From Balanoglossus misakiensis (Eukaryota; Animalia; Hemichordata): a stretch of DNA of 64,000 nucleotides. Numbering within the stretch: position 1 is the stretch's first letter; every line of letters starts with the position of its first letter. The position numbers were made by a program, and so were the translations under genes. Below, one piece after another: positions 25,301-63,646 of this stretch. Below the pieces are notes generated by a model. It ran no database searches. It was not told the origin of the DNA and saw nothing but the letters and a program-made list of their open reading frames with translations. The stretch is taken from NCBI GenBank assembly GCA_040954595.2, contig CM082579.2:10901625-10965624 (forward strand). The letters are read 5' to 3'.

Positions 25301-28300
25301 GCCAGTTGTGACTAATTATACTCATCAATGCAAAGTCAAAAGAAGCCAACAAATTCATCTTGTCATGGCGGATGAAACATGGCAATTTCTTGACAGGCAT
25401 GCTTGCATAGAATGAGAGACACGAGAGCATGCATTGAATTCAAGTTTCCTTGAACTATCATTTGTTAGGTGACCCAGTGAGACACAATCAACATGGAATG
25501 TTCTACCAAATAGCCTGGCTATCCAAGGACAAGGCCATTCGCTTCCAATGATATCTACATTGCCTTAGCTGTAGACATCAAGTTACATGTGAGTGTGCAC
25601 TGAATAGTAATCATTTCAGTGTGCCTCCATACCTAATACACATATTTTGTCGTGAATTTCCGTTGTTCAAGTGAAACAGACACAATTTCTCTGAATCCAG
25701 GCATGCCTGTCCTGTACATGTAGGGTTTCTGATTGATGAGTAATTTTAGGAATTCGGTTTGAAAAAAACCCTGAAGTCTCCAATCCTGACCCAAGTCAGA
25801 AATATGGGCATCAATGTAAGAAACCATATTGGAAATTACATGAAGGAAATAATACAGACAATCAGTACCCTTTGATGTCTGTATGTGAGAGACAGGGTCA
25901 CCTTGTCTTTTTTTTATATCAGATTCTCACAGAAGAAAATTGGCTCTAACTCTAAGCTTGCTATACATATAGATTTCCACTGGAAATCCCAAGATATTCA
26001 CACCAAAAATGTAGGGGTCCAAATGGACAAAATCATTGATATTAATTAAACAATTACTGATCATACATTTATTGATTATTGGAAATTTCTATATTTTCCT
26101 CCAGTAATGAGTGCCAGTATCTGCTTCAAATTTCTGTATTCAATTTCGAGTGAAAGCCTTTGAATATATGTTGTCAGAAACCAATTTCAATTTTGCTGTT
26201 TTGTACATGTACATTTGTGCCAGTTTTATGAGAATCATTTATGACACATAAATATTATGCCTGGTGATGTGAGTCACTCTATAAATGTGAGTATTATTAG
26301 AATTACAACAAGGACTTTGCTGATTGGCCAAGGAGAACATCAAATTATACGAAACAAGTTGAATTGAGGCTGTGCAGTATACCTTATATTCAGCATGTGT
26401 ATACTGTAAAACACTTTATTTTCCCGAGCAATAAATTTTCGTGTAATACGTGAGAGCCAAAATAACGTGAAAATAAAAAGTCGCGTAAATTTTTTTAAAG
26501 ATAATAATGCAGCAAATGAAATAAGAAAATTCGAAAATTAATACTCACGAAACAGTGGCCTCTCTTGATATCGCGAAAATTTCAACTCGCGAAAATAAAG
26601 TGTTTTACAGTATTCTTAGCTTTTTCTCCCTGTACCTATGTGTACATGTCTCCTATTTGTAAGTTGTTGTTTATGCTCATCCACACATGGACAAATTTAC
26701 AGTGGTTTAAGTTTTCATTACTAGTGTTCGGTACAGTTCCCACTAAGATATTAAGCAAGTACACCCTGGATGGAAGTTGTGTGTGGTCGAACGTTGATTC
26801 ACTATATATCCACATGTAGAATAACATTAACGGTGTCTTGCACAAACATAATTAATGTAAAAAGGGCAGCGAGAGAGAGATTTTGTCCCTTTAAGGCTCA
26901 AAATAGTCTTGATAGAATATTTTATTACTCCCTTTTTTGTAGCTTTTATGAGATGCTTAGTACTGGATGGCTGATATCATGCTTACTTTAATATTTTACT
27001 AGACCGGTAAAGAACAGACTGTGTAACAGTGAAATATTGCATGTCATAAAAAAAACAAAAAAAACACCTTTTAGTGCCATTTTAGTGTGATAAGTGGTTT
27101 TAGCCAGTCACATATATCCTGTATTGAGAAACTGGGATGAATATAGCTGTGCCATTGTAATATGAGCAACCTACAATCCCATTTCAAGGATGCTTGAATT
27201 ATAATATTTCATGTGTTTGTTTTAGTGTGCTTCAGGGATGTAGAAAATGTTTGGTGTACACACAATGTAGCCAACAAAAGTGAAGATGAAGGTGTTTTTT
27301 AAGTTTAAAAGCAACTTCCTGTGATCAACTTGTGAGCCAAGATGTTCACATCCTGCAATTCTTTTCTCTTTGCTGATTGATTTTGCAGCATGTCAGAATC
27401 TTTTCTAATTTCCTGTCTGTTAGAAAATTGACTGTTGAAAGCACAACCAAGAGACAATTGCAAACTTTAAATGTCTCTTCTACACAGATATGTATATGGT
27501 GTTCAAAAGTTAGGAGACTGAGAAAATTTTCAATGAGTGTGCGTTTGTGAATGGTGACAGTCCATGAACTGACTGCTGGCAATCCATATGATATATATTT
27601 TAATTATTACGAAGTAGGTATATATACAGCGAGACATTTTAGTTTACTGCAACATACGTACGCAACCCTGAAAACGTTCTTCTATGCTGTATGAACATGT
27701 ACATGTATGTTCAAATGTTCGGTGTAATAAAATGAATAACACATGATGCTCTGACAATATCATCTTTAGCCTGCCCTCGGGCTGGTGATCTCTGACCATA
27801 ATATTGACGATGCTTGAGCCACAGAGATCACCATCCCTCGTGCAGGCTTCAAATCGTGATGTTTCCCTCACTATCATGACTGTGTTATTATTTACATGTA
27901 AATATACCCTGGCAGACCAAGGGTGTTTCAAACAGGAAGTTTATGCACTCCTGAAATAAGTTTGCAACCATCCTGTCCAGGGTGTTAATTTTAGCCAAGG
28001 AAATTGATAGGCAGGAAATACACATGTTTTCCTATTTCCAGGGTCTACGGCCAAATAGAAAAGTCTGTTAGATTTGAGAAATTGTAATGCTGACGAGGGG
28101 TAGTAGAGATACACTAAGTCAGCAGTGTAAGTTAGCCAGTTCAGAATGGTTTGAGGAACTTGATTTATTTGCCACAGTTTAAAAAAATAACTACTTCATA
28201 ATTTTATTCTGTTAAAATTAGGTATTTTCTAATACAGATCAACCCTGTAAAATTCCGGGGATGTATATGTATTTTGTCATATTGAACATAAAATGGTTCC

Positions 28301-31300
28301 TGTAGATTAAATTTTACTATAAATATGCTGACGGTTTGGGAAATTGATTAATAATCATCAAAAATACTGTATGTAGTTAAAGATCATTAACCCTAACGCT
28401 GCCAAGTCAGTATGAACTGGTTTGATTTCCAGGGTGCCTAGAATCCGGGCTCCCAGGCCCGTTAGGCTGCCAAGTGTGTGTTAATCAGTAGGGCCTATAC
28501 ATGACCCTCAGACCAATACAGTACAAACCAGTACAATTTGGTACATTTTTCAGAGGGCTCAGACTGCCAAGTGTGTCTAAGTACGTATGAGAGCCATGTC
28601 AAGACAGTCAAAATACGTTTCAGAAGAAAAAGTGGCAAATACGTATTTTAAGGGACTTGACACTCTAACCAGATATGACCCCCGGTAGCAATAGGGTTAA
28701 TGTGTGCTGAAAAGAATGATCAGTTATTACCTGGTAGCATAGATTCATAAAATGTTAAGTCCGTGTGGTAAAATGTATGTATGTCTGACTTGGTGCCAGC
28801 ATGCATGAGCATGTCGTTCTTGATAATAATAATCATAGTCATATGTACACTTAGGAATTTGCATATGAACACAGGATATATTTGGTGTCTTCCCCCCCCC
28901 CCCCCCCCCCCCCCATAGTCATATTTATATCAATCATAACCCCCTCCCCAATGATTCAAACTTACATTTGAAAGTCACAGATGTGTACACGTGTTTTTAC
29001 AGTCATGAGTGACAGTTTTGGTAATTTACAACAATTCATGTGTGCTAATCAAAATGACCAATCCAGTTGGCAAGTCTCATATCACTCTTCTGATATCATT
29101 CTGAAGCCACTTCATTGTGTCCAGATATATTTGTCAATCTTTAACTAAACTGTGTTTGGCAAAGCAGTGTTGTCCTTAGTTGAATTTTGCAGTCCAGAGT
29201 GTGGAGAGAGAAAAAACCCAAGCATTATTGTCAAGATGAGCAGGGCCATCATCAGTAAGGGTATGGACTCAATAATAGTTTTGTTGGAGTAGTCATAGGT
29301 TTAATATTGTACAGTTGGGATGATATACATCATTCATATATAGTTATGTATGACTGAGTTTGATAAGCTCAGGTCGGCATATGTCCTGTGGCGTACATCA
29401 GCTCTGCATTGCGTGTTTACGTTTGAGCATGATGTATTTTTGCTGATGCAAGTCGGAAGCCAGATTGGCTCCTTGTGCATGTATTTGCAAGTCATATCTT
29501 GAGCAGAGTCAGAGCAGAGTCAGAAATGATGTCATCTAATTAAATTGTCTGCAGTTGTAGAGACTGTGTCTCCACTATCACTGTGTCCTTGGAATGAGGT
29601 GGTCTGTAGAAAACCCCAACTTTGCCCTTTACAAGGCCTCCAGCTGGCTTTGTTGGACTCTTAAAAATCTACCCAGCCCAATGTTGATATTTTGACAAAT
29701 TTGATGTCTTGCCAGTGAAACAATATTTAACAGTTGTGGCATGCTTGTTATCAGGTAGCTCTAGTGTATGTAATCGCATACATGATACAGGATCCAAAGC
29801 TGACAAGCTAGTAATGGGCATTTAACATGCAAATGTACTGTATGGATGTGTCTGACACACAGGTGAAAAAATATTTTGTTATTTTGTTCAATATGGCTGC
29901 TGTTGGTACGTAGAATATTACAATTGGCAACACACTTGTTTCATCAAACATTTATCACTCTTTCAGATATCAGGGCTTGTAAACTAATATTGTCATAATC
30001 CAACCTTGACATATTATAGTTACAGTTCCTGAATGTAATCCCTGAAATTAAAGAAATTAAACATGCCTCCAGGTACAGAAAACTGTCCAATTTCTTGAAT
30101 ATCAGTTCATTATTTTCATGACTAAATGTTGTAGTTTCATGCTTGATTTCAATCCTAAAACCAGCTTTTTGTCAAACATTTCTCCTAAGTTAAAGAGACT
30201 ACCTGTCAACAAAAGTGGTTTCAATTTTCATGAAAGTATTTGATAGTCAGATGTATGTAGAACAAATAATTGAAAACAAGGGTCTTCCCACTGATGTGTT
30301 CATAATATTAGCAAACAAAGATATTTTTATAAACTAATAACTTCACTTGAATGATATTTCATAAACTGCATGTATTTTGTAATTGTTAATGGTTAGGCAT
30401 AATAATAATGTGAAAAGTCGTTGGTTGTCTGTCTCATCAAGTGATAGAAACTATAATATTATGAGTCATAATATTGTGATTTTCATGTTGCATTATGCCA
30501 CTATTTTATATTGCATGTGTGGCAATATTGATAACCTTATGTAATATCATGATAACTTATTCATTCATGATGACATGTGGAATTAAGGTCAAAGGTCACT
30601 AATTTAGACATGGTGGCCAATGCACAATGGAAACTTTGTGAAGAGAATGGACCGAGTAGACATGATTAAGATAAACCAACAAAGCAGAACCAAAATAATA
30701 AATACATGTACAAAATAATAAACAGTAATTCTTAGGTGATAATTTTAAGGTATATGGTCACTTCCAATTTACATATATCCATAATTATGGCTGAAATAGC
30801 GTACATGTATCTGGGTGTTCTAAAGAATGTATGGTGGCACTCTTTTTTTTTGCATGAAAATCTGTGATTGGCCAGATCTCGATTTGCCATGGTAACTTGC
30901 TAAATTTGCATAGGTGACTGTATACCTTTAATTTTGTCAACTTAGGTGTGTGATTATCGCAATAGTCAGTGTTCTGTGGAGGTTTGACCATGGCTTGCAC
31001 TGTAGCAGTCATGAGATTGGCAATAGTTTCCATGAAGTCAATGCCTAGAGCATATAAGAGTACTGTTTAACCATGTAAATGAGAGTGTCTGGACTGGATG
31101 ACCTTGCAAGTGTGTCATTTAAATCAAGTGTGATTTATCACCTGCAATCAGTAAGCTGACCTATAGTTTGGCCAGAATTAATTCAATCACCTTGACTAGT
31201 GTAGACTTCACATCCTAGACTGAATTCCAACAAACAACATGCCAAAACATATGCCAGAGATTTCTCCTCAGATAATAAATGGATTTCAAGAGATGTCTAG

Positions 31301-34300
31301 TAGAGATAAAAAAACATAATTATATTCTGTCCTTGATATATCGTACCCAGGAATACTTATGGGTTGCACACACTGACATGTTTTGATTTTATGATAATAG
31401 AACAGAATAGCAAAGTCAGATATTTTTATTTATATCAGATGATCAGTAATGAAATATATAAAATACCACTTGACTTTTATATTAAGAACAAGTGTGGTCT
31501 CTTAGACATTACGAGTGATTGCTTGATATAGTATGATGGTGGAATTTAAACACAGGTGACATAATAGGTAGCCTTTAGTTCTGTATGATGTACTCAGTCT
31601 GCATTTTCTGTCCCCATGATTGGTAGTGGTAGAATATCCTGCTTTGTATTCCTGCAGACTGATGCAAGAAATGTCTGCAGTTCCTCACTTGAGGGCACAC
31701 ATGAAGACTGTTCATATCAGTGGCTGTTGATATGTGCACCAGTACTCACGTTTACATATAGCTGATAGCTCTATAAATATCTAACCTAGTTTGCTATTGT
31801 CAGTAGGCAAGAATGCCACCTACATACTTTCTGTGCCATAAAGAGTCTGTAATCATGTTCTGATATTCTGCTTACATGCCATTAGTCAGTGATATGCAGA
31901 TGAGTGGACACCCACCATTGTCTGTCTGTATTACTCCTTGATTTTGATTGCATAAAGCCTAAGGATGAATGAAATTATCAATAAAACACTTTTTTAGCTG
32001 TAAAAATATTTTGCATACTTTTTTTGTAATAAATAAAATACATTTACAGCAAAGTGCTTATAGTATAAAATAATAAAACAGAATAACTGACGTTTTACTT
32101 TGGAACTGCCTCAATGAGAATATTTGACACTTTGCCATATGCGATGCCTGTCACTTTTTGTCGTCTGCTTCATTTAATGCTAGACCCTGTGCACTCGTAG
32201 CTACATTCATCTGCACAAGTTTGGTTCAGTTGGAAACTTTTTTCTGACGCTGTTTTTGTTAAGAAAATGACACTGATACAATTATAATATAGCAATAACC
32301 CCTGCCTCTGTCAAGTATACGCTCGAATTGGGCTTGTGCTATTATGTCTCAAAATGTACCCAATTCTCGCGTATACCCACCTTCAGCAGGGGTTATAATA
32401 TCAATAGCTTGATGGGTTTTTTTCCAACAAGGTATATGCTTGTAGTTACCTGTAGGTTGATCTATCACAAGACTGCAGACCTTGTCCCATTGCCTAGTTG
32501 AGTTACATGTACCTTGGCAATATTTGTGCATTTGTCATTGACTGATTAGTAGAAAGAAATGTACAACCTCCGACATTTTTTGTGACATGTCTCTTGAAGT
32601 AAGATGATTTGTTCAAGTGTCTGTTCTCAGTGTGTTTAACAAGTCTGAAGTAGTAAATGTGAAGCATTTGATATCATTATCAAGCTTATTAGAGTATAAA
32701 TCTAAAAATAGATTATGAATCATGATCCCAAACAGCGCCAGGATGCAGATGTTAGATCAGAGTGAAATAACAGTGTAATGTAAAACCCCAAGAAAGTTGA
32801 GCCAAACATCGTGCATGAAATATGATTCATCCATCCTTGTATCATAGATGAATCACCATATAAATCATCACTACTATAAAAAGTAAAACTCATCATTATT
32901 CTGTGATAAAACTGTGCAGTGTTCATCAATAACAAAATTCTCTGTTTGGTATTTCTGCAAATTTCAGTTACTTTGCATGGATTGAGCCTACATGTAGAAT
33001 CAATAAATGTGCAAATTATTATTTTAAATACAGACTTCAGGACAGGTACATGTAACCTTATGTATTGCTGGATTATGTGATCCTTTTGTATACAAACTAT
33101 GCCACTGTGCCAAGATTTTTCAAATCAACTCTGTCTGATATATAAAGATATTTTTATCTTGTAGTACGTAAAAAGATACTGTGATCTTTCTTATGATGAA
33201 ATCATAAGAACTCATGAAGTATATGTGTCATTTGCTCATTGTAAATTAAAGTGAATTTACAGCTTAATTTCTGTTAAGTGATTTTGTACTTTTTGAAGGA
33301 TTTTTTAACAGTTTACTTTTTACTATTAAACATGTAGTTTACACTTTTTTCCTCTTTAGTGAAAACATATGTTTTGATGATCAAGATAACTAATAGCTAG
33401 TGCAAACCAACAGAATATATCAGATGATGTTTCCTGTATGCAGAGTATTGAGACTATGTACTAGTCATGTGATCAACACAATAAATCCTAAGAACAAGCG
33501 TTAATCTCCATTGCCTTTCTACATTTCACGGATAAACATAAACTCAATACAAACATGTAGTACAACTTGCTGTTTGTTGTCCTCAGTACAACCAGGACTC
33601 AAACATTTGAGCAGTCTCCCAAGGTCATGTGATCTCCAAGGTCATGATGCGACTGTGACAGTAACACTGCTTTGCATACTTTCAAAATATCAGAAATGCT
33701 AATCTTTACAGCTTATGATGCATGTTTTGCAGACCGAGGTTGTACAGCAGAAGGGTCTGACCTTTAGTTAGGAATAGGATTGCCCATGCATGTACTCGGT
33801 GACAGTGTGCAACTGAGGTTTGCAAAACACTAATTAAACAGTCATATACCTTATTGAAGGCTAAATATGGGGTGTTCAAATACTATTCTGCAGAGTTTTT
33901 GAAATAAGAATGCTGTCAATATTTAGGGGTTATTTATACACGAATTTTGGTCGATAAGGCATGGCTCACATACGTTCTTAGACGCACTTGGCAGTTTGAA
34001 CCCCCCGTAAAATGTACCAAATCAATTCTAGGCACCCCGGAAATCAAACCAGTTTCAACTGACTTGGCGGCGTAAGGGTTAAATTGGGATTGATTTGCAA
34101 TTATGAACAAGAATTGTGCAGTACACTGTTATGCTTACTGATTCTTAATTCGTCTATTTTTGTCACAGGAAAAACCAACAATACACCCTCAGAACCAATA
34201 TCAATACCAGGAAATGCTGCTGTTGGGACAACAAGTGGTTCTTCTCCATCAGCTGTGGGGGGTCAGCAGCGATCAAGTGGGGAGTTTCGTAGAAGGTCTC

Positions 34301-37300
34301 CATCCAAGGCCGTTAGTCCATTACCCACACCAGACCCTGGTGAGAGTTATATTCACTTGAATGACTGTATGACAGGGCCATCAGAGGCCGCTGATGAAGT
34401 CTCGGCTTTTGAAGAAGGTCAATATAAAAAAGCACCCCCTCCGAGACTGGCCGAGAGACAAGTGAGTTCCAGCAGCATACCGGAAAGTCCACCACCACCA
34501 CCCCCTGTGAAAAGTTCCTATGACCATCCACCCCATCCTGTGGTGGCTGATGACACGTACGATGTGCCTCCCATTCACAGTGCGGGCTTGGCGCCCATTG
34601 ATGACTCGGACGGCATCTATAAACTGGTGCCCCCTCCAAAGCCAAAGCTTGAGAACAATGAGGACACGGACATTTTAAGTAAGAACTTCGAGCGCCAGAT
34701 ATCCAAGGCAAATAATGTGAGTGCGTCGCCAAGCTCCGAAGCTCTGTCAAGTTCACTGACACGGTCACCCAATGACTCCTATGACCTAGTGCCCCCACCG
34801 AGGCCGTGTAAACCTGCACAGTTTGTACCAGCCAACGATGGTAATGATGGCAATGCAATTTATGATGTGCCCCCGACGCACGATTCTGATATCTATGATG
34901 TACCGCCCTCGCACGGCAAGGAGCTGGAGAGCCCCGGAGTGTACGACGTTCCACCATCGTTTCAGCACGCGTCCAAGCCTCCGGATTTAACCAAAAAACT
35001 CTCCTCGTCAACCGACGCACTGGCGATGGAATTCACCAAGATTTCCCAGAAGAATCAAGACACGCTGCACGAGATGGGCCACAAGGAGAACGGCATCATC
35101 GCCCTTGACGACGAAGTGCCTCCTCCCGCTCCTCCGAGGCCGGCGAAATCCAAAGCAGATGTAGACGACGAGTACGTCTACCTGGCCGAGCAGACTGTAC
35201 AGCAGAGTAACTACGACATCGTGCCCCCACCGCGTGCAGTGGTCACCTCCCCGAAAGCTCTGAATGCACCCGTGGACATCCCGGCACCTCCACCCAGACC
35301 GCCAAAGCCTCCGACGCTACTGAACGACATGTCTCACAGTCCAAACATGCCCAGTACGCCACCACCGAGCTTTGACGACAGATTCCGACTGAACGAATCG
35401 ACCATCAAACAAGGCGTGGCCGAAGACGAGCTGACTGATAAACTCAGTCTGCTGCAGACGCAAGACGGAGGCTCGGCAGAAGGCAGTGGTGAGGAGGAGG
35501 ATGACTACGACGTGCCTCCCAAAGCGGTCAAAGCCAAAGTGAACGCCAATGACCAACAGGGCTATCTGGACACCAAGATACCAGCGCCTGCGTCAGTTGG
35601 ACCGACCGGTGCCGAGTACCAGAATTTATTCATCCAAAGGCCTGGATACGTCGAGATGAGAGGAGCCCTGACGTCAGAATTGGGGGAGCCCACAGAGAAC
35701 TACGTACCCATGGCGACAAGTATTGATGACAACACGCACTACACCCCCATGGTGAGTGCACTGAGCCACCCAGTCCCTCCACCGGCATCGCAGCTTAAAG
35801 AAAGCACAAGACGGAGTCAACAGCCTCTGTTTCCACCGCCTGTCAACAGGAGTCTCAAACCAAAGAAGTTCCCGAGAGGTTAGTACTGAAAAAATTTCAT
35901 GTTGTCTACGGCAGATGAAAAGGTGTACCAAAATACTCAAAAGTTTCTTAAAATTGCATTATTTCTGGTAGTGTTGGAATGTTCAATTGCAGGATTATTC
36001 AGACTGTCCCAGCTGTGGTGTTTACAGTGAAACCTGTCATTACGGACAACTCTCTAATCAGGACACCTCTGGGACAGGTCTTTCAAGACAAAAGTCACAG
36101 TTTGAATAAAATATTACATATCTATTAAGGACACCTCTCTATTGAGGAAAGATTTTCCAGTCCCAGGGGTGTCCTTAATGGACAGGTTTCATATTTCATG
36201 TCTGATTCCCAAAAACTTTTATGTGCATCACCTGCCATGAAATGTCATAGAAATGTCTAATAGACAGCGATAGAGGAAAATGAAACTCAGAAACCTGCTT
36301 CACACTCCTGAGTCGCATGTATACATAAACAAAAGTCGCCAGGAAGACCCTTACAGCACATAAAAAAGTGAGAATTCAGTGCTTTAAAGAAATAAAGATA
36401 ACAGCAGATAATCAAGCTATATACCCTGACTAAAAGGGGGTTTATTACTAAAGGTCCACTATCTGTAATTTTTGGCAATTTTTCTCAGTATTTTATTCTG
36501 TTTATCAACCATGGTTTCCTATTCAACTCCCTGAGTCAGTGTTAAATGTGTACATGTAGTGTCGATCTTCTCAATGTAGCCCATGTGTGCATGATCGACA
36601 TTGTTATTGTTTAAAAATTGTATTCAAGTCCAGACTTGAATCCATGATTATTAATTGTAAACAATAACAACGGTTGGTGCACATACACATGACTTGTTTA
36701 GAAGGAGAAAACGGGGTGTGTTCGAAAATTATAAGGAGGAAACAAATAAAATGTAGTTGATACACAAAACAGAAATACTGAAAAAATAGCCAGAAGCAAA
36801 AAGTAAAAGCCAAGTCAAAGATCAGAAACACTTGCCATTAATGAAAACTTCAAGTCTTTAATAAGTTTTATCAGTAATACAACGGTATGATACAGTCCAC
36901 GGAATACTCTTTCAGAATAAGCTGGTCCAGTATTCCCAATAATTTTCCAGAAGAAAATACTAAAATATTAAAGTCCATGGCTTGTTGAGTGCAGTTATAA
37001 ATGCCAGTATTCCCGATGTTTTCCCCTTCCTGACAGTGCCACCTCTGCCCACAGCCTCTGCCGGGAATTTCTATGCCACCCGAGATGATGTCTCCCCCTT
37101 TGTCGGTTTGCCAGTTGAGTCTCCGAGAACAAGAAGTTTTGGAAAAGCGGGCCTTCAGTAAGTAGTGTCTCCTTCTGTTTTCTCTGTAGACTCCCCAGGA
37201 ATGCATCACCATGGGGCAGGCTGTGCGTAAGTACAGTGTGCATTTCAAACCTTCTTTTGTGTCTGCAGCCCTCTTCTCTTTGTGTCTTCATCCTTTCCTT

Positions 37301-39100
37301 CCAACTCAAAGTTTCTCTCTCGCTGCCCTTTTCCCATTATTTATATTTGATACAAGACACCGTTTATGTTAATGAACATGTGGATACATAGTGAATCAAC
37401 GTTCAACCACACACAACTTCCATCCCACTTGTAGACACAAGAGTGAAAAACTCGCCAGAATGAATAATCGGTGTTTACCATTTATTCATTTTGGCGGGAT
37501 TTTTACTCTCATATCATACAAGCGGGATGGAAGTTGTGTGTGGTCAAACCTTGATTCACTATATATCCACATGTAGAATAACATAAACGGTGTGTATGAG
37601 AAATAGAAGTTCAACAAGTTGACTGAGTTTTGTATACTAACTTCAAGTATGGAACTTTTAAACACAGAAGTCATGAAATACAAACCACATCAATCTTACT
37701 ACAGTGACTTGTCGACTGTCTTACCCACAATGCAATTAGTATAATGTGATTTGACCCCCTAGCATGAAGTTAAAAATTATTTAAGGAAGCAAGCATTACC
37801 ATACCTCAGCCAATGAATACCATAATAGCATAACATGTCACTTTCACTCCTTGATGGCGCAACATGGTTGACTTTTCCACCTCATGCACTGAATGTTTGC
37901 TGCGACATTACAGCTTACTTGGTGGTGATGATGATGACCGTGATCGAAGCGACACAATGGAGAGCAGCAGTAGTTCATCTGACGGTGGTGATGGTGTGCA
38001 GGGCCACAGGGAGCTGTATGAATCTATGCATCCCAGATTTAAGAGTGGCCAGGAACACCCTCCAGAACTGTACATGAGACACGACCCCAGAATATACCAG
38101 GTAAATCACTACCTCGGCTCTTGTTGTATCCAGTTTATCTTTCTGTGAAAAAGAGATATAACCACATTAGCGTTAGGGTTAATAGCATTATCTCTGAAAG
38201 CCAACAAATAAAACTCATTTCTGCAATATCCTTGATACTCTAAGTTTGGCCTTTTGTTAAGGGAGAAATGATTTGTGAAAATCTCTCTCAAAAATGCTCA
38301 CTCTCAAAACAGCTTGTTCAGATGACCTTCAGAAATGTTGTGAAGATCACCCACCATCCATCTGAGAATTCTGATCTTGGTCACTCAAAATGTTGTGTAG
38401 CTTGCTGTGAGAAAGCTTGTGAAGGTCCATCTTAAAATATGTGTGCAACAAATTCTGATGTGTAATTTTTATTGAAATTCTATTGTTGATTTTGTGATGC
38501 ATCCCAGATTTAAGGGTGGCAAGGATTTTTGTGATGTTTTGTTTCCTATTCTGAAGATCAAACCCTCGCTTGATACTAGAGGGACTTTAATCCAACCTGG
38601 GAAATGGCATGTCAGAGAGGGTCAGAGAAATACTGTCAGTGTAGAAATTTCACATTACTATTGGGAAATGTTCTATCTTGGTAGAGAATTGTCAGTCAAT
38701 GTGACTGGACCACAGGGCAGAGTCAGGAAATATTGATATAACCCAGAAGTCATGTCATATACATGTATTACTATACACAACATACAATAACCACATATGC
38801 TGTCTTTGTTCTAAAAAAACACAGAAGTCTGATGAGTTACAACCCATGCCATCATCACCGCCGCCACCTCCACCAGTGGCCAGGAAGTCCACCACTAGGA
38901 AAGATCCCGTGAAAAAGGCAGGGGAGGTTCAGTACATTGACCTTGACCTTGATGAACCCAGTGAACCCGCACCGCCCAGACCAGTGCGTACAATACCCTC
39001 GTCGGAAACGGAATACACAAGTCTTGACATGGAGAGAACGATTGGACTGCAGGATGCCATGCGACAGAGGGAGAAAGACCTGAACAAAGAGGCAAAGTAA
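16371..39100 (+). CDS. GAB1: GRB2-associated binder (GAB/DOS family) PH-domain docking protein, ~887 aa
   Basis: Exons 16371-16439, 19236-19536, 34169-35878, 37037-37157, 37914-38100, 38825-39100 (2664 nt, phases consistent). The N-terminus MAEEVVCTGWLRKSPP...WKDRW is a Gab-type PH domain. Also present: Grb2-SH3 motifs PPPRPPKP and PPPVNRSLKP, YxxM motifs (YVEM, YVPM, YTPM), repeated YDVP, and tandem C-terminal SHP2-type motifs VQYIDL and TEYTSL. Probably co-orthologous to vertebrate GAB1-4; the symbol is for the family. Confidence 0.88.
19236..19536 (+). CDS. GAB1: GAB exon 2 (bulk of the PH domain)
   Basis: Acceptor tacag|AAA, donor G|GTAAG. Encodes KFWKDRWCVL...LEYYKN...PKGTIDLSKC...RTFYLV...MHRWTRNLCRVCGF. 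Confidence 0.93.
21830..22140. repeat. Dispersed repeat, copy 2
   Basis: Aligns by eye with 3816-4075. Confidence 0.7.
24549..24761. mobile_element. MITE family A copy
   Basis: Same TIRs and internal sequence. Confidence 0.85.
24942..25128. mobile_element. MITE family A copy, inverted and internally deleted
   Basis: Reverse-complement orientation relative to 24549-24761. Confidence 0.85.
26402..26612. mobile_element. MITE family A copy, inverted
   Basis: Same TIRs, reverse orientation. Confidence 0.85.
26767..26895. repeat. Partial copy of repeat family B, reverse orientation
   Basis: GGATGGAAGTTGTGTGTGGTCGAACGTTGATTCACTATATATCCAC. Confidence 0.7.
28387..28700. mobile_element. piggyBac-like TTAACCC...GGGTTAA MITE
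   Basis: TTAA-CCC termini. A related inverted end (GGAAATCAAACCAGTT...GACTTGGCGGCGTAAGGGTTAA) lies at ~34020-34082. Confidence 0.65.
30745..30931. mobile_element. MITE family C copy
   Basis: TTAAGGTATATGGTCAC...GGTGACTGTATACCTTTAA with a shared internal AAAATCTGTGATTGG. Confidence 0.75.
34169..35878 (+). CDS. GAB1: GAB exon 3 (Pro/Tyr-rich docking region)
   Basis: Lies within the 599-aa ORF. Phase-1 acceptor tcacag|GA and donor G|GTTAGT; multiple YDVP, YxxM and PxxP motifs. Confidence 0.9.
37315..37593. mobile_element. Foldback (palindromic) repeat family B
   Basis: 37357-37593 is a long imperfect palindrome (ACACCGTTTATGTT...GTGGATA...TATCCAC...AACATAAACGGTGT). Partial copies lie at ~10900-11125 and ~26767-26895. 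Confidence 0.75.
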
Positions 39101-39580: not shown

Positions 39581-40269
39581 TTATCACTTGTTAACAAATG
39601 TAAGCTGTAAAGTGTATTGTACTGAGAAACTGAAACTAACAGTTATGTATGAATTTAAAGGAAACGATTTGATATTTTTAACAGCAGCTGGTACTATATT
39701 CCACATGACATTTTCAGAAATGTGGCCCATTTTTGGCGATCAAGGAGCAAGCTTATCACGACAGCAAAACAGTTAGGGTCATCATGATATATTATCTGAT
39801 GTTGGTATTTGTCAATAGAAGAAGTCATGTATCCACGTAACATTCAGTATGTCTGCAGTATTGTATTTAGTATATATGGTTATCTATGTAGCATTGACAT
39901 GTATTGTCGATATTCAGTATTGATACGAAGAGTAACTTTGATGTATCCATTTTCTACAGCTACATGTACACGTATCACCATGTTGAGTCATAATGGGTTT
40001 AGTTGATACTCTGTTGAAAAAAACCTTTGAAAGTAGACAAACCAGTGCCGGTAGTATCTTTGTGCCACTTGTCAAAACAAAAAAGTTACATGTATAAGTT
40101 TTGAGAATCTTTGGTGTAGATTTTACTGTGAAGCTATATACAATGGACTGGCATTTTCTGTGTAGTAAACTGCTTCCAAGTAATTAGAACAACACAGTGT
40201 AATTCAGAAATTGATCATAGAAGTGTGAAGCACTAGAAATATTTGCCAGCGTATGCAGATCTATGTCAG

Positions 40270-40458
40270 TAAAAGGTATACAGTCATGTATGCAAATTTA
40301 GCCAAAGTTACCATGGAAAAAGTTGAGATCTAGTCAATCACAGATTTCCAGTGGGTGGCCATGTGATTAAAGGGCACCTCTATATGATCAGTTGAAGACT
40401 TTAGACATGCTCTCTTGACCGTATATGAGCATATGGAGAGTTGACTGTATTCCTTTAA
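40270..40458. mobile_element. MITE family C copy, inverted
   Basis: AAAGGTATACAGTCA...TGACTGTATTCCTTTAA. Confidence 0.7.
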
Positions 40459-55420: not shown

Positions 55421-57050
55421 TCATTTTTTTTTCTGTTCAGATAACCTTGCTTTGTACTCCTGTGCATGCTTGCCCCAGGAATACTCCTGACCACAGGCTT
55501 CTGTTATGTTTAGGTATTTCAGTGCATTGGCAGAGTCATTTTGTTCTTGGTAAGCGTCGGCAAGATTATAACATGCATTTAGTATGTGATATGGGTCAGA
55601 GAGGGTGCTGATCAGATGGGTATATATTTCACATGCATCACTGTACTGTTTCAAGTATCTGAAGGCAATGGCCTTCACGATAGAAGCAATGGGATACAAA
55701 CCACCTGCATATGCAACTGCTTTGTCGAGACACTCTATGGCTTTTAGCAGGCACTGACGATTGCTTTCTATCGGATTGTGATGGTATTTGGCCATGTATG
55801 TGTCTCCTAGGTTAAACGCGAAAATTGGATTGTCTGGCTCTTGTGCTGCTGCATTGTGAATAACTCGCAGTGCTTTTTCGGAGTCTCCAACATTGCTGTA
55901 GCAGTAATAATGACGTGCAAAATTTACCGTGGAATTGGATAAAGGGGTTAATTCGAGTGCTTTCTGGGTGAGTTGACGTGCTTCTTCATAGCGACCTTCA
56001 TTGAGTGACAGCTTACTTAAAATTCCCAAAGCATAGCTGTGATGGGCATTTTTCTTAAGAATTCTCTCAAGCAAATTTCTTTCTTTTGCCATTATTTGTA
56101 AAGCTTCTGGACATTTTGAATCTTTACAGATACGATAACGTTTTAGTGAAAGAAAAGATGCTTGCCAAAGCATCCAATCTGTTCGTTCTGGAAGTTCTAC
56201 TAAAGCATGATCAAAGCAATCAATTCCCTCATCAAACGTTTTTTTGTCAAAATAAGCAAAAGAGACACCCTTGTGAGCATATACATACGCTTTCTGTTTC
56301 CCTGACAATTTATCAAGTGACAAAGTTGCTATCAACTTTAGCGTTTCATCAACTCTGTCCATCTCACCCGACATGAAATGAACCCATGCTTTATCTGCAA
56401 GAAGAACCAACTTATCACCAATTGGACCATCGTCGTCACCATCACAGCTGTCGAGTTCTTTCTGGTTGTCGGTGAGGGCGTCATCAAACCACTTCAAAGC
56501 GGCACTTGGATCTCTCTTGTCTTCTGATCTCAGTTTGGACACGTACAGGTAACCTTTGATAGCTTTATGGGGAACTGGAGAGAACTCCTGGTTGTGATAT
56601 TTAAATCTGTTGTCCAAACAACACTGTAAGACCTACAGTACATGGAAATGCATGTTATATTGTCATGTGCAAACCTCAGGTCTCAGGCTCATTAACTCAC
56701 ATAATATAAGAGCTTCAACTGACACAACCATTTGACAAATAAATTTTACACTTTAAATGATGCGAGAATTAGGTATTCAGGATGTTTCTTTCTACATTTC
56801 AATTAACTTTAGGGGATAAATTATTATCCTCAATGGAATAGTTGTTAAACATTTTCTTAATTTTATGATATTCCAACCAATCACAGATGTAATTTATTTA
56901 TGTATAAACTTCCAAAAATGTCAATGAAGGTCCTCACCTCAAAACTGTTGTCACAAAATTCTTCGAGTTTCCAGGTAAAGTGGCAGGGAAACCTCTGCAG
57001 AATTTCTCCATTAGATTTTGCTGTATGCTTCAATCCTGTTATGTGTGTAA
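55421..57050 (-). CDS. IFIT-like tetratricopeptide-repeat domain (two exons)
   Basis: The small exon 57050-56938 encodes EILQRFPCHFTWKL, the hallmark IFIT N-terminal CHFTW motif. The 398-aa ORF continues with IFIT-like TPRs (LADKAWVHFMSGE; KGVSF...GIDCFDHALVELPE; EEARQLTQKALELTP). Confidence 0.8.
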
Positions 57051-60000
57051 CTGAAAATTCTATTGAATAGTAAAAACAAAGTTTGGAATTTAAACTGATT
57101 TCACGATTTTAATTTTAAATTGAGATTGGTCTATTGAAATTAGCTTTTATTTATTATGGTATGCCTACATTTTATGAGAGAGTTGAGTTGTATCAAACAG
57201 TGAATGAAACAACATAAATATCTATCAGCGCAACAACATAAATATCTATCAAAAGAAACTAAAACAACCAAAATAACGTCAATATTGAGCGATTTTGTTC
57301 GTTCAATTTATTGAAGCAATATTCCCGTGGGAAAATCAGTTGAAAACTAATAGAGTTTAAAAATAAATATTCTGGACCATGTTAAAGGTATACGGTCACC
57401 TATGGAAATTAGCTATACAAATGTAGTTACCATGGCAAATTGAGATCTAGCCAATCACAGATTTTCAGTGGGTGGCACATGGGGAAAAAAGAGCGCCGTC
57501 ATATGTTCTTTAGAACGATCAAATACCCCATTTCAGCAATGTATGGGCATGTGTAAATTGGACGTGACTGTATACCTTTAAGTATAATCATTTTGCAAAG
57601 AGTGTCAATTGCAGGAAAGAAAGGGAAGATTTTGAGACCGAACACTTAAATTCGCTTTTGCTCCTAGACCCAAGAAATCTGTAATAAAAAAATAAATTCA
57701 GCCTTTCATGGCCATGCATACTTTCATAATCGAAGTTGTTTGGAGAATATTATTTTGTTTTATTTGGAGCAGATGATATAACGGATGCATGGATATGTTG
57801 CACATAACTGCATTACCTTCGATGTTCTTGTCTACAGGTGGCACAGTTGCAGTTTTCGTTTCCTTAAGTTCGTCGATAGTCTGAAGTAACTGCCGATTTT
57901 TGTCCATGGTCTTTTGATTTTCCTCTTTCAGTTTGATATTTATCATGGTTAGTTTCGAACTGTGGTTTTCACTGCTCTTCAGCATTTCCTTCAGACGCTG
58001 ACTTGTCTGCTCACTTTCTTCACCAAGAACACGAATTCTTACTTCACTTTCCCTCTTAAGGAGCGTATATTCCCTCTCCTTGGATTGTAGTAGGTCTCGA
58101 ATCTTCTTGTTTTCGTTAAAGAGCGAAGTGATGACAGAGAGATAGTTGTCTGTCGAGATTGGTTCCAAGACACGAGCAGCTCCTTCTTTTGAAATAGATT
58201 CCACCAGAATCTTGTCCGATTCTTTGGTGCCAGTGTTTAAGATGTTGACGCCATTTTGATTGACAAGTCTCTTCAGTTCTGATGAAAATGTGATTCAATA
58301 TTGTTAGCAAAATGTTATATATGATCGATACGATGTAACCCCCTTTGCAATTGGGTCGGAGGCAATAGAATGCAAATAAATGGGCACTATCTATTTTAGT
58401 TTATGCTCGATGTGCAAATCAATGGCAGACTAGTACAGACCTATCTTTAGAATCAAACTTCAACAAGCAGCCAACTAAACCAAAACATTCCCTTTAGAAC
58501 AAATTTCAGCAGCAAGCTTATTCGTTTTGATTAGTTGAATAGAGTATTGTTTGACCAACTTCCCTGCCTAAATGTTTGTGAACACTGACCGTCTCTATCA
58601 TATCTGCATGTCTCTCCCTCTTGTAAGGTGATTGAAGACAACTGTTGGCTATCCAAAATCAAACACCGTCTGATTCCAAGGACACCAAGAACTTCTGGCC
58701 GTTCATCCAACAACGGGGACAACTGTAGAGGGCGCTGTATTCTTATCAACAGGACGATTGGTGTCTGTGTGTCTCCCACATCAACATTTATCTCAGCTTC
58801 CAAAGTGCCGGAACCACCAAGTAGTTTTGATAAACCGATTCTGTTTTGGCGTGTGGCATAGACATGTCGATCAACCTCCAAGGCAACCATTGCACTATTG
58901 TCATCTGCAGGTACAAAGATCGATAATAGGCAAAATAAATTGTATGTATTCTCATTAAAATGAGCACATGTTTTACTGAATAGTGGAGTATACTTTTTAT
59001 GCAAACATTTCAAACAAATGGATTATCAGCTAGAAACATAAGAACCTATGGAGGCGTTCAAAATATCACGATATGTCATGTCATATCTGTAAGCACTTGC
59101 CTGGTTCAATCAGAATATCTTCAAGTTCTGAACACTTCTCTCCACATATTTCACAGATGTCTGCTGATTTCACTTCCGGGACAAAACCTACAAAGATATA
59201 CGTCAACGTCATGAGATGCTTTATTTACTACATCTCCTATTTACAAGTCGAACAAGTATTTTGTGATGGTGAGAAAGTCATTATCGGACATTGTAAATAC
59301 GTGTTTGATAAGAAATTTAAGGCCAGATAAAAAAATGTGCTGTTCCGATTACCCGGCCTACCCTAATTTTAACCCGCCGACCCTAAACTTTTTAGAGCTT
59401 CGTAAACTGGAAGTAAAAATAACGATGTCAAATATACAAAATTTATGAATATTGCGAGAATCAGGCAAAAACTACGACTGCCAAAGATGTAAAAAAATTG
59501 CAATAAATAAATTTCCCTACCTACCTACCCTATTATTGAAAACCATGTAATCGGAACAGCACATATTTTTTTCATTTGGCCTAGGCTAAGTTGAGTACAA
59601 ACGATTGCTCTGAAATCAGCTTACCTTCGTTCATGTACTTCAATTCTGCCCGACACCGTCTATATCGCCACACCTCTATGGTTGTCTTAAGGGGAACATC
59701 TGATACGTTTAATCTATGAAGCATAGATTCTGTGACGATATCAGCCTTGAATAATTCCCCCAATCTCCCTCGTCTGTAGTCACTCCATAATTTCTCCAAC
59801 GCCTCTGATGTCTGACATGCCAACACAACACACAGACACCCTTGCTTGATTTCCTGAATTGTAATTCCACCAACGCTGTTCAGATACTCTTTCACCTTTG
59901 GGAAATCGTCTTCAGATTTGATGCTGTAAATTTCTCTTTCTATGCGTTCAGCCTGATCTGGAGTCAAGTTAGCATTGTCGACGTAAATATGAATCTCGAT

Positions 60001-61946
60001 ATCCCCTGAAATAAAGTTCATCAATTTTAATACATTGCCGAAAATAATTTAACTTCAGCCTGAACTGCCATGTATTAAACATGCAAGAGATAAATCCACC
60101 ATCTTTAAAATCTGTTGACCGCATTTAAATCTCAGGGCAGGAGAAAACCACTTTTGTTCGAAACATCCCATATATTTAGATGGAGAAATCCATACATTGT
60201 ATCGCGAATGTGCTTACGTAATGAATATTTTACCTCGAATTGTTCTGAAGGTATGTGTGTAAGTTTGTCCACCACCAGAAGCTTGTCCGTCGTTGTGGTC
60301 ATCGTTACCATCTCCACTTTCAAACCCGTTGCCTGGTGGAAGATTTTCACCCTGCCCTCCTGTGCTGTTGCCATTGGTGATCGAACTTCCTTGTTCCTGA
60401 ACTGGAATTGTTTTCGGGTTGTCGACCCCTGGAAAGAAGTAAGAAGCATTGCAGGTATCTAAATGACATATGCTGAATGTGAGTTTACATCTACGTGTAT
60501 AACACTTTGCAGCAAAACATATTTCTGATCAGTTATTCAACTGTTAGTCTTTATATGGATATTCTTTATATCAGTGTTACACAATGTATTTGACATTCAT
60601 TCCGATACCGATTAAAGTGTTTTATGCAGCGTTCACATGTAATATTTTCTTCTTGAAGACAGTCATTATCATTTACCTTTTGAGGATTCTTCCCCAGGGT
60701 CTTCACACTCTGCAGACCTAAATGTAGAAGAATCCAGCAATTTCTTTTGTTGAACTGCAATGAAACCATTCTCTGCAGACTTATGAAGTGCTTTACTCAA
60801 TTCCTGTGATGCGTTATTAGCACGACCATATTTACACAGGACAGGCATGATGGTGTCTAACCATTTTTCACTTTCGCTATCGACATTTTGGCATTGTCCA
60901 GTGTCACATGACGGGACAGAGATGGTGGGGAAGTGTTCATCTATGAACGATGCAAGGCCTGATTGCTTTGGTTGTATTGTGGGCACACCGGCAGCACAAG
61001 ACATAAGACCGATCACACCAAATGGATCACCTTTAGTTGTGAATATTACCACGAGGTCACATTGCATCAGATCTTTCTTTAAGTGGTCCATCGATGCCTT
61101 GTTTGGATATAGCCGAATATTCAACAGGTGTGATGCGGCCATCTTCTCCAGTTTCCGCTGAAACTTTTCGCATGGTGTTTGTGTTACAAGTCCTCTGAAC
61201 TTCCACTTTGTGTTGTTATCGGAGTAGTTAAAGTAGCGAGCTACTTTTCCCATGCTACGTGCTGCTGCTTCGAATTCCTTCAGATCTTGTAGACTTGATA
61301 TTGTGTGTACAGACAGGACTTCTATTGTGTTCCCCAACTCTGAATTACTAGCTGGACGCTGACCAACACCCATCTTTGCCAAGGGAATGTACAGCTCATG
61401 CGCCACTTCTGAATTCAGAGAAACTTGAATCTTCCTCTTGTAGTCATCGCATACTGATGGACCAACTGACAAAATGGCGGAAGCCGCATTGATATATTCC
61501 ATAATTTCACCATCAAGGATTTCCAAATCGGAAGGCTCCAAGCTCATGTTGTCTATCATATCCGACAAAACTGGAACGAATCTCGGAATCCCAAGATCCT
61601 TTTGAATACACTTTGCAACATCGGCAGTTCCGTTCTTGCAAGTAGTGCCATATATTGTTGTAATCGGGAGACATTTCTTCAACTCGGGGAATCGGTCAAG
61701 GTGACAAATTAACCAGTCCCTTTGCGGTTTCTGATTTCTCTTGACAGTTGGAAGAATCAACTCCACACCATGTTCGCTCGCGTCCTCCACCTCTGCGTCA
61801 GTTGCTTCCAAAACCATGAAGGAGACTTTATTTTCTCTGACAGCAAGGTCTATCGCTAGTTGTCTTTCAGTGATACATGTTGCTATGTTACGCCTTCTCG
61901 GCCACCATTCTTCTCCAACAACCAGTACACGATTACTGTGAGACAT
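55421..61946 (-). CDS. Multidomain putative immune protein, ~1325 aa: degenerate GT4 glycosyltransferase, TRADD-N-like domain, unknown domain, coiled coil, IFIT-like TPR domain
   Basis: Exons 61946-60677, 60458 (or 60428)-60234, 60005-59625, 58904-58590, 58278-57817, 57050-56938, 56632-55421. All introns are GT-AG and the exons splice into one stop-free frame (3978 nt). The ATG is preceded by an acceptor (ttgtag|G ATG), implying at least one upstream exon. Confidence 0.75.
57382..57581. mobile_element. MITE family C copy, inverted
   Basis: TTAAAGGTATACGGTCACCT...GTGACTGTATACCTTTAA. Confidence 0.8.
59321..59581. mobile_element. Harbinger-like MITE in an intron of the GT4-IFIT gene
   Basis: TIR GGCCAGATAAAAAAATGTGCTGTTCCGATTAC / GTAATCGGAACAGCACATATTTTTTTCATTTGGCC, flanked by TAA and TAG. 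Confidence 0.75.
59625..60005 (-). CDS. TRADD-N-like domain exon
   Basis: IQEIKQGCLCVVLACQTSEALEKLWSDYRRGRLGELF...ESMLHRLNVSDVPLKTTI matches the G-x-L...LE-x-LW-x-DY-x-x-G-x-L signature of TRADD-N-like domains in invertebrate immune proteins. Confidence 0.75.
60677..61946 (-). CDS. GT-B/GT4 (Glycos_transf_1-like) domain exon of the type found in invertebrate NLR and immune proteins
   Basis: RVLVVGEEW...ERQLAIDLA...DASEHGVELI...DWL, ILSVG, EVLSV...LK...AARSMG, and DLMQCDLVV...DPFGVIGLMSCAAGVP...SGLA match the cnidarian/amphioxus immune GT4 pattern by eye. Confidence 0.8.
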
Positions 61947-63618
61947 CCTACAAGATGAATATACTATATGAATAAGATGCAAGATGTGATTTTTCATTTT
62001 AGTGAACAACATAACACTGCTTTACACATTTTCTTGAACAATATATGTTCATCCTACATGTAGTATGGTTGACATGTTTGTGTGCATGGGCCTACATACA
62101 TGTAGGTTGACTGTCACTGACACATATTTAACGTATACCAGAACACAGTGAAAACACCCCCTATTCTAATGGCAAAAAGTCTATAGTATTCTGTTTGTTT
62201 GGTTTGAACATCATTTCACTTCATTTGGTCACCCTTTCTTAGCAGGTCATTGACTGGGTTACTGGTTCTAGATTTATATACAATAATTAAAATGGGGCAA
62301 TCCATTAAGTCTTCTGTTTTACTTCCTTCACCACATATTTCATGATTTATATATTTTAAATCACACATTTTCTTAATTTTAAATTTAATTGGTTTTGTGA
62401 CTTCACATGTTGAATTTATTAGTCCGAACACAGAATTGCTGATTCAAATTCATGATGGTTCATTTGAGGCCACCACCCCCTAAGGGACAATGCGTTATCG
62501 ACCTCCTGTCCAAACAACCAGAAAGAGGTCAGCGATATACACAAAGGGTTTCTCACTCAATTGTGGCATTCCAAAAGTGAAAGAATGTGAAGTGAAAAAG
62601 AAGTCAAACACTCAACTGTCAAATAGTAAAGCATGCGAACATTTATGGTAGACTCAGGTCAAAGGTCATGAGTTGTACGGCGTATATTCAAAGCCGCATC
62701 ACGTAGTGAAAGTAATCCGCCATATGCAAATTTATAAGGTATAAATAGAAAAGGTGTCATCCGGACTATCTCTCCTCATTGCAAACGGGGAGAAGGCGAC
62801 ACAGAAGTAGGCTAAGACCCGATGGTGTAGAGGAGATACGGAGAGGGTCGGCGGTCTCCCGCCCACCCACCCCATGTATATATTGCTTTCGCCACGGATA
62901 AGCCCACCAGAATTTCGACCCAATCCTAACAATGGCTATATCCCTGATCGAAGTGATAAGGCTTTAAATATATAGTCACTTTGAGAAGGGTTCAGGGAGT
63001 GGAGAGGGACGAATGGCCGGGAAGTGAGACTCGATGCGCGTCGTTTCAATACCAAATTCAAGTCTAATTTATTATCACAAACTCTGCGGTTTATATACCG
63101 TGTGGTGAACCACAGACCAAGAGAAAAAAACAGACTAGCAACGCGGCATGTCCCTTTGATGTCTTGTTCACCTCGGCAAACAACGGCAAACAATAGGCTT
63201 CAAATGTGTCAAATGGGTTAGACACCGAGGAGACTTCCCAGAATACTTTGCGGTTGCGTCATTATCGACAGCTGCAGTACCTTGCCTGACACAGCTTTGC
63301 ATTCAGGACTCGACTGAAACACTACTTGACGACAACCACGATTTACACTTGATTTACACGTTAGAAGTAGTATTTGCATCTACAACCTATGCAAGTTTAC
63401 AGAACACGATTCGGCGAACAGGAATCTATTCCAAAAAATCGAGATTGATGATTAAACCTTTTCAAATTTACGATCGAACACACTTATTATATATTCATAT
63501 TTTTTATTGAAATGGTCAAACTCATCTCTCCGATGCTCAAACTTCCTCAAATTTTCGCTGTACACTCGCCTTCCATCTACAGCTGACTGACAACAACAAC
63601 ACAAACTTTCACGAAAAC

Positions 63619-63646
63619 ACTTTCGTTTCATAATCGGGAAAATTCC
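63619..63646. promoter_or_regulatory. ISRE-like plus kappaB-like motif pair upstream of the GT4-IFIT gene
   Basis: ACTTTCGTTTC (63619-63629) and GGGAAAATTCC (63636-63646). Motif match only. Confidence 0.4.

Follow-up and report, generated by a model that had tools for sequence, protein, structure and literature searches.

A predicted acorn-worm gene joins an IFIT-related solenoid to a GT4 and TRADD-N chassis

A 64,000-nucleotide stretch of the genome of the acorn worm Balanoglossus misakiensis (assembly GCA_040954595.2, contig CM082579.2, positions 10,901,625 to 10,965,624; hereafter the window, in whose own coordinates all positions are given) contains, at 55421-61946, exons for a GT4 glycosyltransferase-like domain, a TRADD-N-like domain and a TPR solenoid resembling the IFIT proteins of vertebrates. 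This raises the question of whether the three belong to a single gene, whether the solenoid is truly related to the IFITs, and what a protein so composed might do. Our analysis confirms the locus as a gene model whose exons are predicted to splice together and encode a single protein, in which, as far as sequence comparison can tell, a known chassis of GT4 and TRADD-N is fitted with a new, IFIT-related cargo.

The predicted gene lies on the minus strand, from an ATG at 61946 to a TGA ending at 55421, and is made up of eight exon-sized open stretches (Table 1) that, when joined, form one open frame of 1344 amino acids (aa) with a single terminal stop. All acceptors have AG, and the donors are six GT and one GC, the latter after 59101. 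The introns are 196-766 nt long, with phases 1,1,1,1,1,1,0, the phase-0 intron interrupting the solenoid domain, and every exon is richer in G+C (0.39-0.49) than the introns (0.31-0.36). Omission of the exon at 57050-56938 breaks the frame and brings in 32 stops, while leaving out the 87-nt exon at 59187-59101 gives a protein of 1315 aa with six introns. The original prediction, made from the DNA without database searches, had envisaged a single frame of ~1325 aa with six introns and canonical splice sites: the fused frame stands, as do most of the canonical sites, but the length was an underestimate, and an eighth exon and seventh intron, with the GC donor, are likely. The predicted domain order is a GT4-conflict domain, an acidic linker, TRADD-N, a Cys-rich mini-exon, an ACT/ferredoxin-fold domain, a weak coiled coil and the IFIT-related solenoid; in keeping with the order first put forward, Pfam recognizes the GT4-conflict, TRADD-like_N and TPR domains, and gene models from Ptychodera and Glandiceps repeat it. 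In the Pfam scan of all eight exons, listed to E<=1, exons 2, 4, 5 and 7 had no match, and no exon matched NACHT or another STAND NTPase, a difference from the NLR/STAND receptors. Directly ahead of the stop codon there is a run of nine A (55424-55432), where the alternative frame would add only nine more residues, with no homology. Intron 6 contains a dispersed repeat of ~200 bases (57382-57587), with copies of 74-86% identity near 5940-6138, 30744-30931 and 40269-40363.

The exons were compared with those of homologous proteins. A search for longer proteins gave three matches among 6300 candidates, two of which are Ptychodera flava proteins with a GT4 domain. In Ptychodera XP_070569242.1 and XP_070568966.1 all eight exons align in order, with 25-61% identity per exon. 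The alignments cover both the CxxC mini-exon and the exon 6-7 junction, across which the homologues are continuous, so that the predicted join from 57817 to 57050 corresponds to contiguous homologue sequence. The 1613-aa protein XP_077977119.1 of Glandiceps talaboti likewise has GT4, TRADD-N and the CxxC stretch, followed by the exon 5 module and coil twice over and a near-complete solenoid. A library search with the solenoid family returned 717 matches at E<=0.001, of which the best 150 were examined. Among the 158 proteins compared once this best set had been added, the same domain order is found in three with GT4 (P0001, P0002 and P0006, from two genera), all three also having the CxxC stretch, and no other member of the set bears a GT4 domain.

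These comparisons bear on the possibility that the locus holds two separate genes, or a decaying product of exon shuffling without function. Such a reading could appeal to intron 6, at 766 nt longer than any other and with four AATAAA/ATTAAA hexamers in its sequence, to the truncated or over-joined state of the homologue models, and to three proteins of the same solenoid clade that have no GT4 (P0007, P0008 and P0009). It is nevertheless very improbable, given the intact frame, the same joins in three taxa, the continuity of the homologues over the exon 6-7 junction, and exon 7 itself, whose acceptor is in phase 1 and in which no in-frame ATG occurs. A separate IFIT gene, which the original prediction had named as one of the outcomes that would undo it, was accordingly rejected on the frame, the shared joins and the missing ATG, and we hold with high confidence that the GT4, TRADD-N and IFIT-related parts are fused in one predicted gene. 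Some points weigh on the other side. The homologues come from RefSeq gene predictions and are annotated as 'uncharacterized protein', the splicing in the window is predicted from sequence, and both Ptychodera models end inside the solenoid. Furthermore, Ptychodera P0001 reads on (aa 909-1037) into a further GT4 head, of which it takes in the first ~115 residues; since it runs into a neighbouring GT4 gene, such models can evidently over-join. The same extension suggests that such genes are arranged in tandem in Ptychodera, and in the window tblastn found no second copy. As a separate observation, the fused clade includes members without GT4 and TRADD-N (P0009, P0007 and P0008) that consist of module, coil and solenoid or of coil and solenoid, and these may be either truncated models or the outcome of stepwise exon shuffling via phase-1 introns.

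We then asked whether the solenoid is an IFIT relative or a generic TPR array. Among the best 150 of the 717 matches, the top 14 are all acorn-worm proteins, mostly auto-named IFIT-like by NCBI, and shark, ray and frog IFITs come next. A 20-row profile without named vertebrates recovered IFIT5 (E 7.7e-68) and IFIT1 (3.8e-67), each as a single full-length stretch, whereas the best natural non-IFIT, OGT, reached 6e-33 in three stretches; only an engineered consensus TPR stood above the IFITs. A second search with a profile of this family gave similar values. In the reverse direction, a vertebrate-type profile of nine rows, three of them named and the rest assigned by clustering, gave the window protein 75.3 bits, and none of 220 other TPR proteins scored above 59.0; 21 of the 24 acorn-worm-type proteins exceed that value, the three lower ones being partial. 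Alignment of the fused clade with vertebrate IFITs by hhalign extended across 380 columns, beginning at residue 2, with a score of 252; four control TPR families reached 52-101 over at most 199 columns. The generic TPR reading was rejected on these two sets of controls. The CHFTW signature typical of the IFIT start is present, all five PDB matches of P0001 at E<=1 are to IFIT1/3 via its N-terminal part, and all ten rows listed by the ESM Atlas are IFIT clusters at 0.96-0.97, with a recognition value slightly under the tool's mark. A quick tree of 30 IFIT-like rows and eight other TPRs, constructed without TTC22 and TIR-bearing forms, supports the IFIT grouping with a Shimodaira-Hasegawa-like approximate likelihood ratio (SH-aLRT) of 95, a value biased because the alignment profile was built from the ingroup.

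Not every comparison separates the solenoid from other TPRs. With a vertebrate profile of the N-terminal 125 residues the window protein scores 14.8 bits, below the maximum of 19.3 for other TPRs, and the single-sequence AlphaFold model of exon 8 is poor (predicted local distance difference test, pLDDT, of 54.7), consensus TPRs and OGT ranking above IFIT1 among its neighbours. NCBIfam gives generic TPR matches only, and insensitive word-index searches, one returning two generic TPRs and another two family members among 96 matches, are uninformative on range. On balance, the profile evidence argues that the solenoid is a true IFIT relative, from end to end, within an expanded acorn-worm family, as the original prediction had supposed of its kinship. 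Trees computed without duplicate isoforms and without P0014, P0020 and P0154 (the second also without generic TPRs) contain a fused clade of seven rows (100/100), a vertebrate clade of nine and three stand-alone lineages, each with Saccoglossus, Ptychodera and Glandiceps members, joined at a base that is not resolved. An approximately unbiased (AU) test of uniting the fused lineage with the vertebrate IFIT clade gave p 0.17, by which the union is neither rejected nor demonstrated. The solenoid ends at profile position 433, about 30-40 positions short of the 461-476 of IFIT1/5, and no 3' exon completing it was found in a search down to position 40000.

The jawed-vertebrate IFIT1/IFIT5 (PDB 5w5h, 5udi, 6c6k, 3zgq/4hor), IFIT2 and IFIT3 are like the window solenoid in their CHFTW start and their collinear helical solenoid of ~380-460 columns; the ISRE-type site upstream of the window gene may be a further likeness. 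However, they are stand-alone proteins, each from a gene of two exons whose coding frame lies in the second (PMC3688568), whereas here there are eight coding exons and the solenoid forms the C-terminal part of a multidomain protein, with an intron inside the domain. It also stops before the last repeat, does not keep the RNA-contact residues and falls in its own clade, as the orthologue of no vertebrate paralogue. Stand-alone acorn-worm 'IFIT1/2/5-like' RefSeq proteins (XP_077997910.1, XP_070570675.1 and XP_006812281.1), which are top matches among the best 150 of 717, have the same solenoid family but differ in reaching ~800 aa, in having a C-terminal helical extension and no GT4 or TRADD-N, and in keeping some of the RNA contacts. 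A family matching IFIT1/5 along its whole length is present in acorn worms of three genera, contrary to the standard account of Liu et al. 2013 (PMC3688568), in which the origin of the IFITs is put in jawed vertebrates together with interferon and acorn-worm candidates are rejected. At least three stand-alone lineages are common to Saccoglossus and other genera, which suggests that IFIT-type solenoids predate the vertebrate interferon system. Six of the stand-alone proteins, of 630-800 aa (P0018, P0010, P0155, P0032, P0013 and P0017), share a conserved C-terminal helical domain of ~170 aa that has no significant match in Pfam, PADLOC or PDB; in three of the six it contains N-x-x-K-H, which we take to be HEPN-nuclease-like. 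Another IFIT-like protein, P0111 (an ENA record of 576 aa), lies on a long branch that belongs neither to the vertebrate clade nor to the named acorn-worm clades, and hints at further invertebrate IFIT-like lineages.

The N-terminal part of the protein belongs to a catalogued architecture. GT4 and TRADD-N are combined in cnidarians, amphioxus and hemichordates, where entire immune genes have been joined to them (Kaur et al. 2021, PMC8195603), the cargo including Bcl-2, LRR, AIG GTPase and STING. The GT4-GTase+TRADDN-DEDD2(+X) proteins of cnidarians, amphioxus and Saccoglossus in that study are similar in having GT4-conflict, TRADD-N and then variable immune cargo; the window protein differs in its IFIT-related cargo, in the extra CxxC exon and ACT-like domain, and in a degenerate GT4 motif. 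In its Saccoglossus rows the cargo is Bcl-2, a transmembrane segment with LRR, ankyrin, or nothing, and eight Branchiostoma rows in its source data are GT4+TRADDN+TPRs, with TPR cargo termed TTC28-like (one of the eight rows is so named), a comparison made by description only. The word IFIT is absent from the main text of that paper, and the 12 of its 13 supplement files searched gave only two chance occurrences within aligned sequence. Passages of PMC13197388, PMC4887208 and PMC9334734 name no invertebrate IFIT, and literature searches, which for the most part did not extend to subscription journals, gave no description of the fusion or of hemichordate IFITs. The claim that the architecture is wholly new is hence to be narrowed: GT4 with TRADD-N was already catalogued for hemichordates, and with TPRs for amphioxus, while no published mention of an IFIT cargo was found. 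With this fusion, IFIT joins the immune genes that the chassis has captured. The Glandiceps XP_077977119.1 and Ptychodera XP_070569242.1 and XP_070568966.1 proteins share the order and fall in the same clade (100/100), the doubled ACT-like module and coil distinguishing Glandiceps.

The TRADD-N-like exon 3 matches PF20694 with 37.9 bits, above the cut-off of 23.7, whereas the homologues remain below it (14.5 and 15.5 bits); phmmer of this exon against PDB gave no TRADD match. Residues G544-C545 occupy the position of the conserved u[S/C] turn, a motif of TRADD-N described in PMC8195603, at which the homologues have KS. Vertebrate TRADD, with its TRADD-N/TRAF2 interaction, is alike in the TRADD-like_N Pfam family and this turn, and unlike in that no death domain is found here. 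The domain is located between two globular domains; Kaur et al. 2021 (PMC8195603) propose that TRADD-N acts as a switch between the domains on either side of it. What had been called an unknown module of ~105 aa is indeed a distinct module, but one that can now be assigned a probable ACT/ferredoxin-like fold: the AlphaFold2 model of exon 5 (pLDDT 79.7) has a beta-alpha-beta-beta-alpha-beta arrangement, and its Foldseek/VIA neighbours are ACT, S6, RRM and EF-G V folds (best Z 6.5, root-mean-square deviation 2.8, 71 aligned). The module occurs in two copies in the Glandiceps protein and is N-terminal in Ptychodera P0009. Its fold class is that of TRADD-N, with Z at most 6.5, but no kinship in sequence to exon 3 was detected, hhalign to the exon-3 alignment scoring 10.5, within the shuffled range of 8-16; TRADD (1F3V) is absent among the matches listed for the exon-5 model, by which kinship is not excluded. 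The predicted coiled coil of exon 6 is weakly supported by sub-threshold Pfam matches to ZapB and Sas-6 coiled coils and by a heptad check in which five of eight a/d positions fit.

The original prediction further proposed that the solenoid may serve as the sensor, here taken as an IFIT-type sensor of RNA. We mapped IFIT5 positions through the profile alignment, at ~19% identity, and counted R260 as presumably an eleventh RNA contact. At E33, Q41, K150, R186, Y250 and R253 the window protein has V, R, Y, L, V and A, and at Y254, K257, R260, Q288 and R294 it has R, Y, S, N and M, so that none of the 11 is kept; the ten positions apart from R260 are RNA contacts of IFIT5 in PMC9677429. Seven vertebrate IFITs keep 6-11 and twelve stand-alone acorn-worm-type forms 1-5, while the other full-length members of the fused clade (P0006, P0007 and P0009) keep one each. 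The net charge of the solenoid, -8, is not discriminating, the vertebrate rows ranging from -9 to +2. In favour of some contact with RNA, basic residues lie within one position of two of the six basic sites, and given these and the mapping at ~19% identity, RNA may conceivably be bound in another mode. In light of the lost contacts and the early end of the domain we treat the solenoid as a homologue and do not file it as a member of the IFIT family. Such a pattern suggests that what it senses or baits is likely not the end of a viral RNA; IFIT3 alone, for instance, does not bind RNA (10.1101/152850).

It is thus improbable that the protein works as originally envisaged, with the solenoid sensing foreign RNA in the manner of IFIT1/5 and TRADD-N signalling to TRAF, like an NLR without NACHT. 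The IFIT homology, the u[S/C] turn kept in TRADD-N, the ISRE-consensus site upstream of the gene and the RNA contacts kept in some stand-alone relatives would all suit this model, but the complete loss of the mapped contacts does not, the net charge having no discriminating value, and MATH is not a universal partner of TRADD-N (Kaur et al. 2021, PMC8195603).

At the other end of the protein, the match to PF20706 extends from aa 8 to 389, equivalent to positions 1-374 of the 385 of the model (119 bits, cut-off 26), and covers both Rossmann halves; the domain is 34-40% identical across homologues, and phmmer of exon 1 against PDB gave nothing useful. Active GT4 enzymes have an EX7E motif and an Arg/Lys pair binding the pyrophosphate (PMC8760489). 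In the window protein the motif reads D307-x7-M315, and D-x7-M/L is seen in all four proteins, that is the window protein and three homologues. The donor-binding Arg is absent from all four and Lys is kept in two, while the PFG core and the acidic first residue are kept throughout. The sole comparator, a plasmid-borne bacterial GT4, has both E-x7-E and GR..KG, whereas none of the four acorn-worm-type copies has the GR, and the N-terminal GG loop of the bacterial family was not seen in the window sequence. Because the second Glu of the motif and the Arg are lost, the head is likelier a pseudo-enzyme, catalytically impaired, than an active one. Against this it may be noted that some GT4 enzymes tolerate losing one Glu (PMC8760489), that the Asp remains and Lys is present in two of the four, and that only one bacterial comparator was aligned.

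These residues bear on two further explanations. According to one, following the effector model of Kaur et al., an active GT4 would glycosylate invader or host-interface molecules brought to it by the solenoid; the wholeness and conservation of the domain and the persistence of the PFG core and acidic first residue in all four proteins speak for it, but with the second Glu and the Arg gone from each and the GG loop not seen, we consider it poorly favoured. The other reverses the roles: the dead GT4 would do the sensing, with a glycan or sugar nucleotide as its target, and the IFIT-like solenoid, once released, would be an effector blocking translation via protein contacts. Inactive enzymes do act as receptors in such systems (PMC8195603), and IFITs inhibit translation initiation (PMC3688568); yet across the family it is GT4 and TRADD-N that are constant and the C-terminal cargo that varies, and no ligand is known, making this explanation unlikely, if slightly less so than an active enzyme.

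The reading that we prefer, tentatively and as a good possibility short of a probability, is that the protein is inducible and works in the cytosol as an immune receptor or a decoy scaffold. Its solenoid would bind protein and not RNA ends, TRADD-N would be its switch, and its head would be a pseudo-GT4. The immune role that had been proposed in general terms is supported. IRF and NF-kB would turn the gene on during infection. The solenoid, captured from the stand-alone IFIT-like family of acorn worms, would then bind either a pathogen factor that antagonizes them or a partner complex, the latter proposed by analogy with IFIT3, which acts by binding other IFITs. Binding of the ligand might reconfigure the TRADD-N switch that holds its neighbours, after the model of Kaur et al., while the ACT-like domain and coil could help self-association. 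The GT4 head would bind or regulate without transferring sugar. With the head as a pseudo-enzyme, the protein would exert its effect by recruiting signalling or death proteins that act downstream, among which TRAF need not figure. If so, this would be a case of an IFIT and a GT4 both losing canonical residues within one receptor-like protein. A broader and doubtful scenario is that IFITs and their ISRE control predate vertebrates and interferon, and that the acorn-worm lineage turned one into an 'integrated decoy' in the GT4-TRADD-N chassis, giving up RNA binding in order to bait pathogen antagonists of IFITs and using the pseudo-glycosyltransferase as a switch; in the stand-alone sister copies, the sensing of RNA may be linked to the C-terminal nuclease-like domain.

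The upstream region is relevant to the proposed induction. An ISRE-consensus site (interferon-stimulated response element) has a kB-like 11-mer beside it (Table 1), and nowhere else in the window do two such sites lie within 40 bases of each other, the kB consensus being one that we assumed. In simulations, such a pair was present in 6 of 5000 regions of 2.05 kb and in 3 of 300 windows. The ISRE site, 1.7 kb ahead of the ATG, exactly matches the consensus applied to IFIT promoters in PMC3688568. We consider the pair a candidate immune-inducible promoter, and as such it bears on whether IFIT was IRF-inducible before interferon. Several observations weaken this: the patterns were chosen post hoc, after the sites had been noticed; ISRE matches number eight in the window as against 2.75 expected; the stricter N2 ISRE pattern has no match upstream of the gene; and the sites could serve a gene beyond the window.

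Table 1. Predicted exons of the fusion gene, its upstream elements and other features, in window coordinates
Feature	Position	Strand	Description
Exon 1	60677..61946	-	aa 1-423; GT4-conflict glycosyltransferase-like domain; PF20706 E 3e-34
Exon 2	60234..60428	-	aa 424-488; Gly/Asp/Asn-rich linker
Exon 3	59625..60005	-	aa 489-615; TRADD-N-like domain; PF20694 E 1.6e-9
Exon 4	59101..59187	-	aa 616-644; small CxxC exon, GC donor, frame-neutral
Exon 5	58590..58904	-	aa 645-749; ACT/ferredoxin-like domain, by AlphaFold2 and Foldseek
Exon 6	57817..58278	-	aa 750-903; end of module and charged helical, weakly coiled-coil-like stretch
Exon 7	56938..57050	-	aa 904-941; start of IFIT-related domain; CHFTW at 56985-56971
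Exon 8	55421..56632	-	aa 942-1344; IFIT-related TPR solenoid; Pfam TPRs
Probable intron of 5' untranslated region	61948..63280	-	Donor after 63281, AG acceptor one base before ATG; predicted from sequence
Second kB-like site	63229..63239	-	The 11-base pattern occurs five times in the window, this site included (2.7 expected)
ISRE-consensus site (63619-63630) and kB-like 11-mer (63636-63646)	63619..63646	-	5 bases apart; candidate immune-inducible promoter
Calpain-15/SOL-like gene	9401-13876	-	RanBP-type zinc fingers and Peptidase_C2 exons
PH-domain exon and Pro/Tyr-rich exons	19215-39100	+	PH match by Pfam
Two open frames, 198 and 150 aa	43819-45253	-	No Pfam match; probably exons of another gene

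Among the neighbouring genes in the window, the one with the PH-domain exon and Pro/Tyr-rich exons is presumably akin to the GAB/DOS adaptors.

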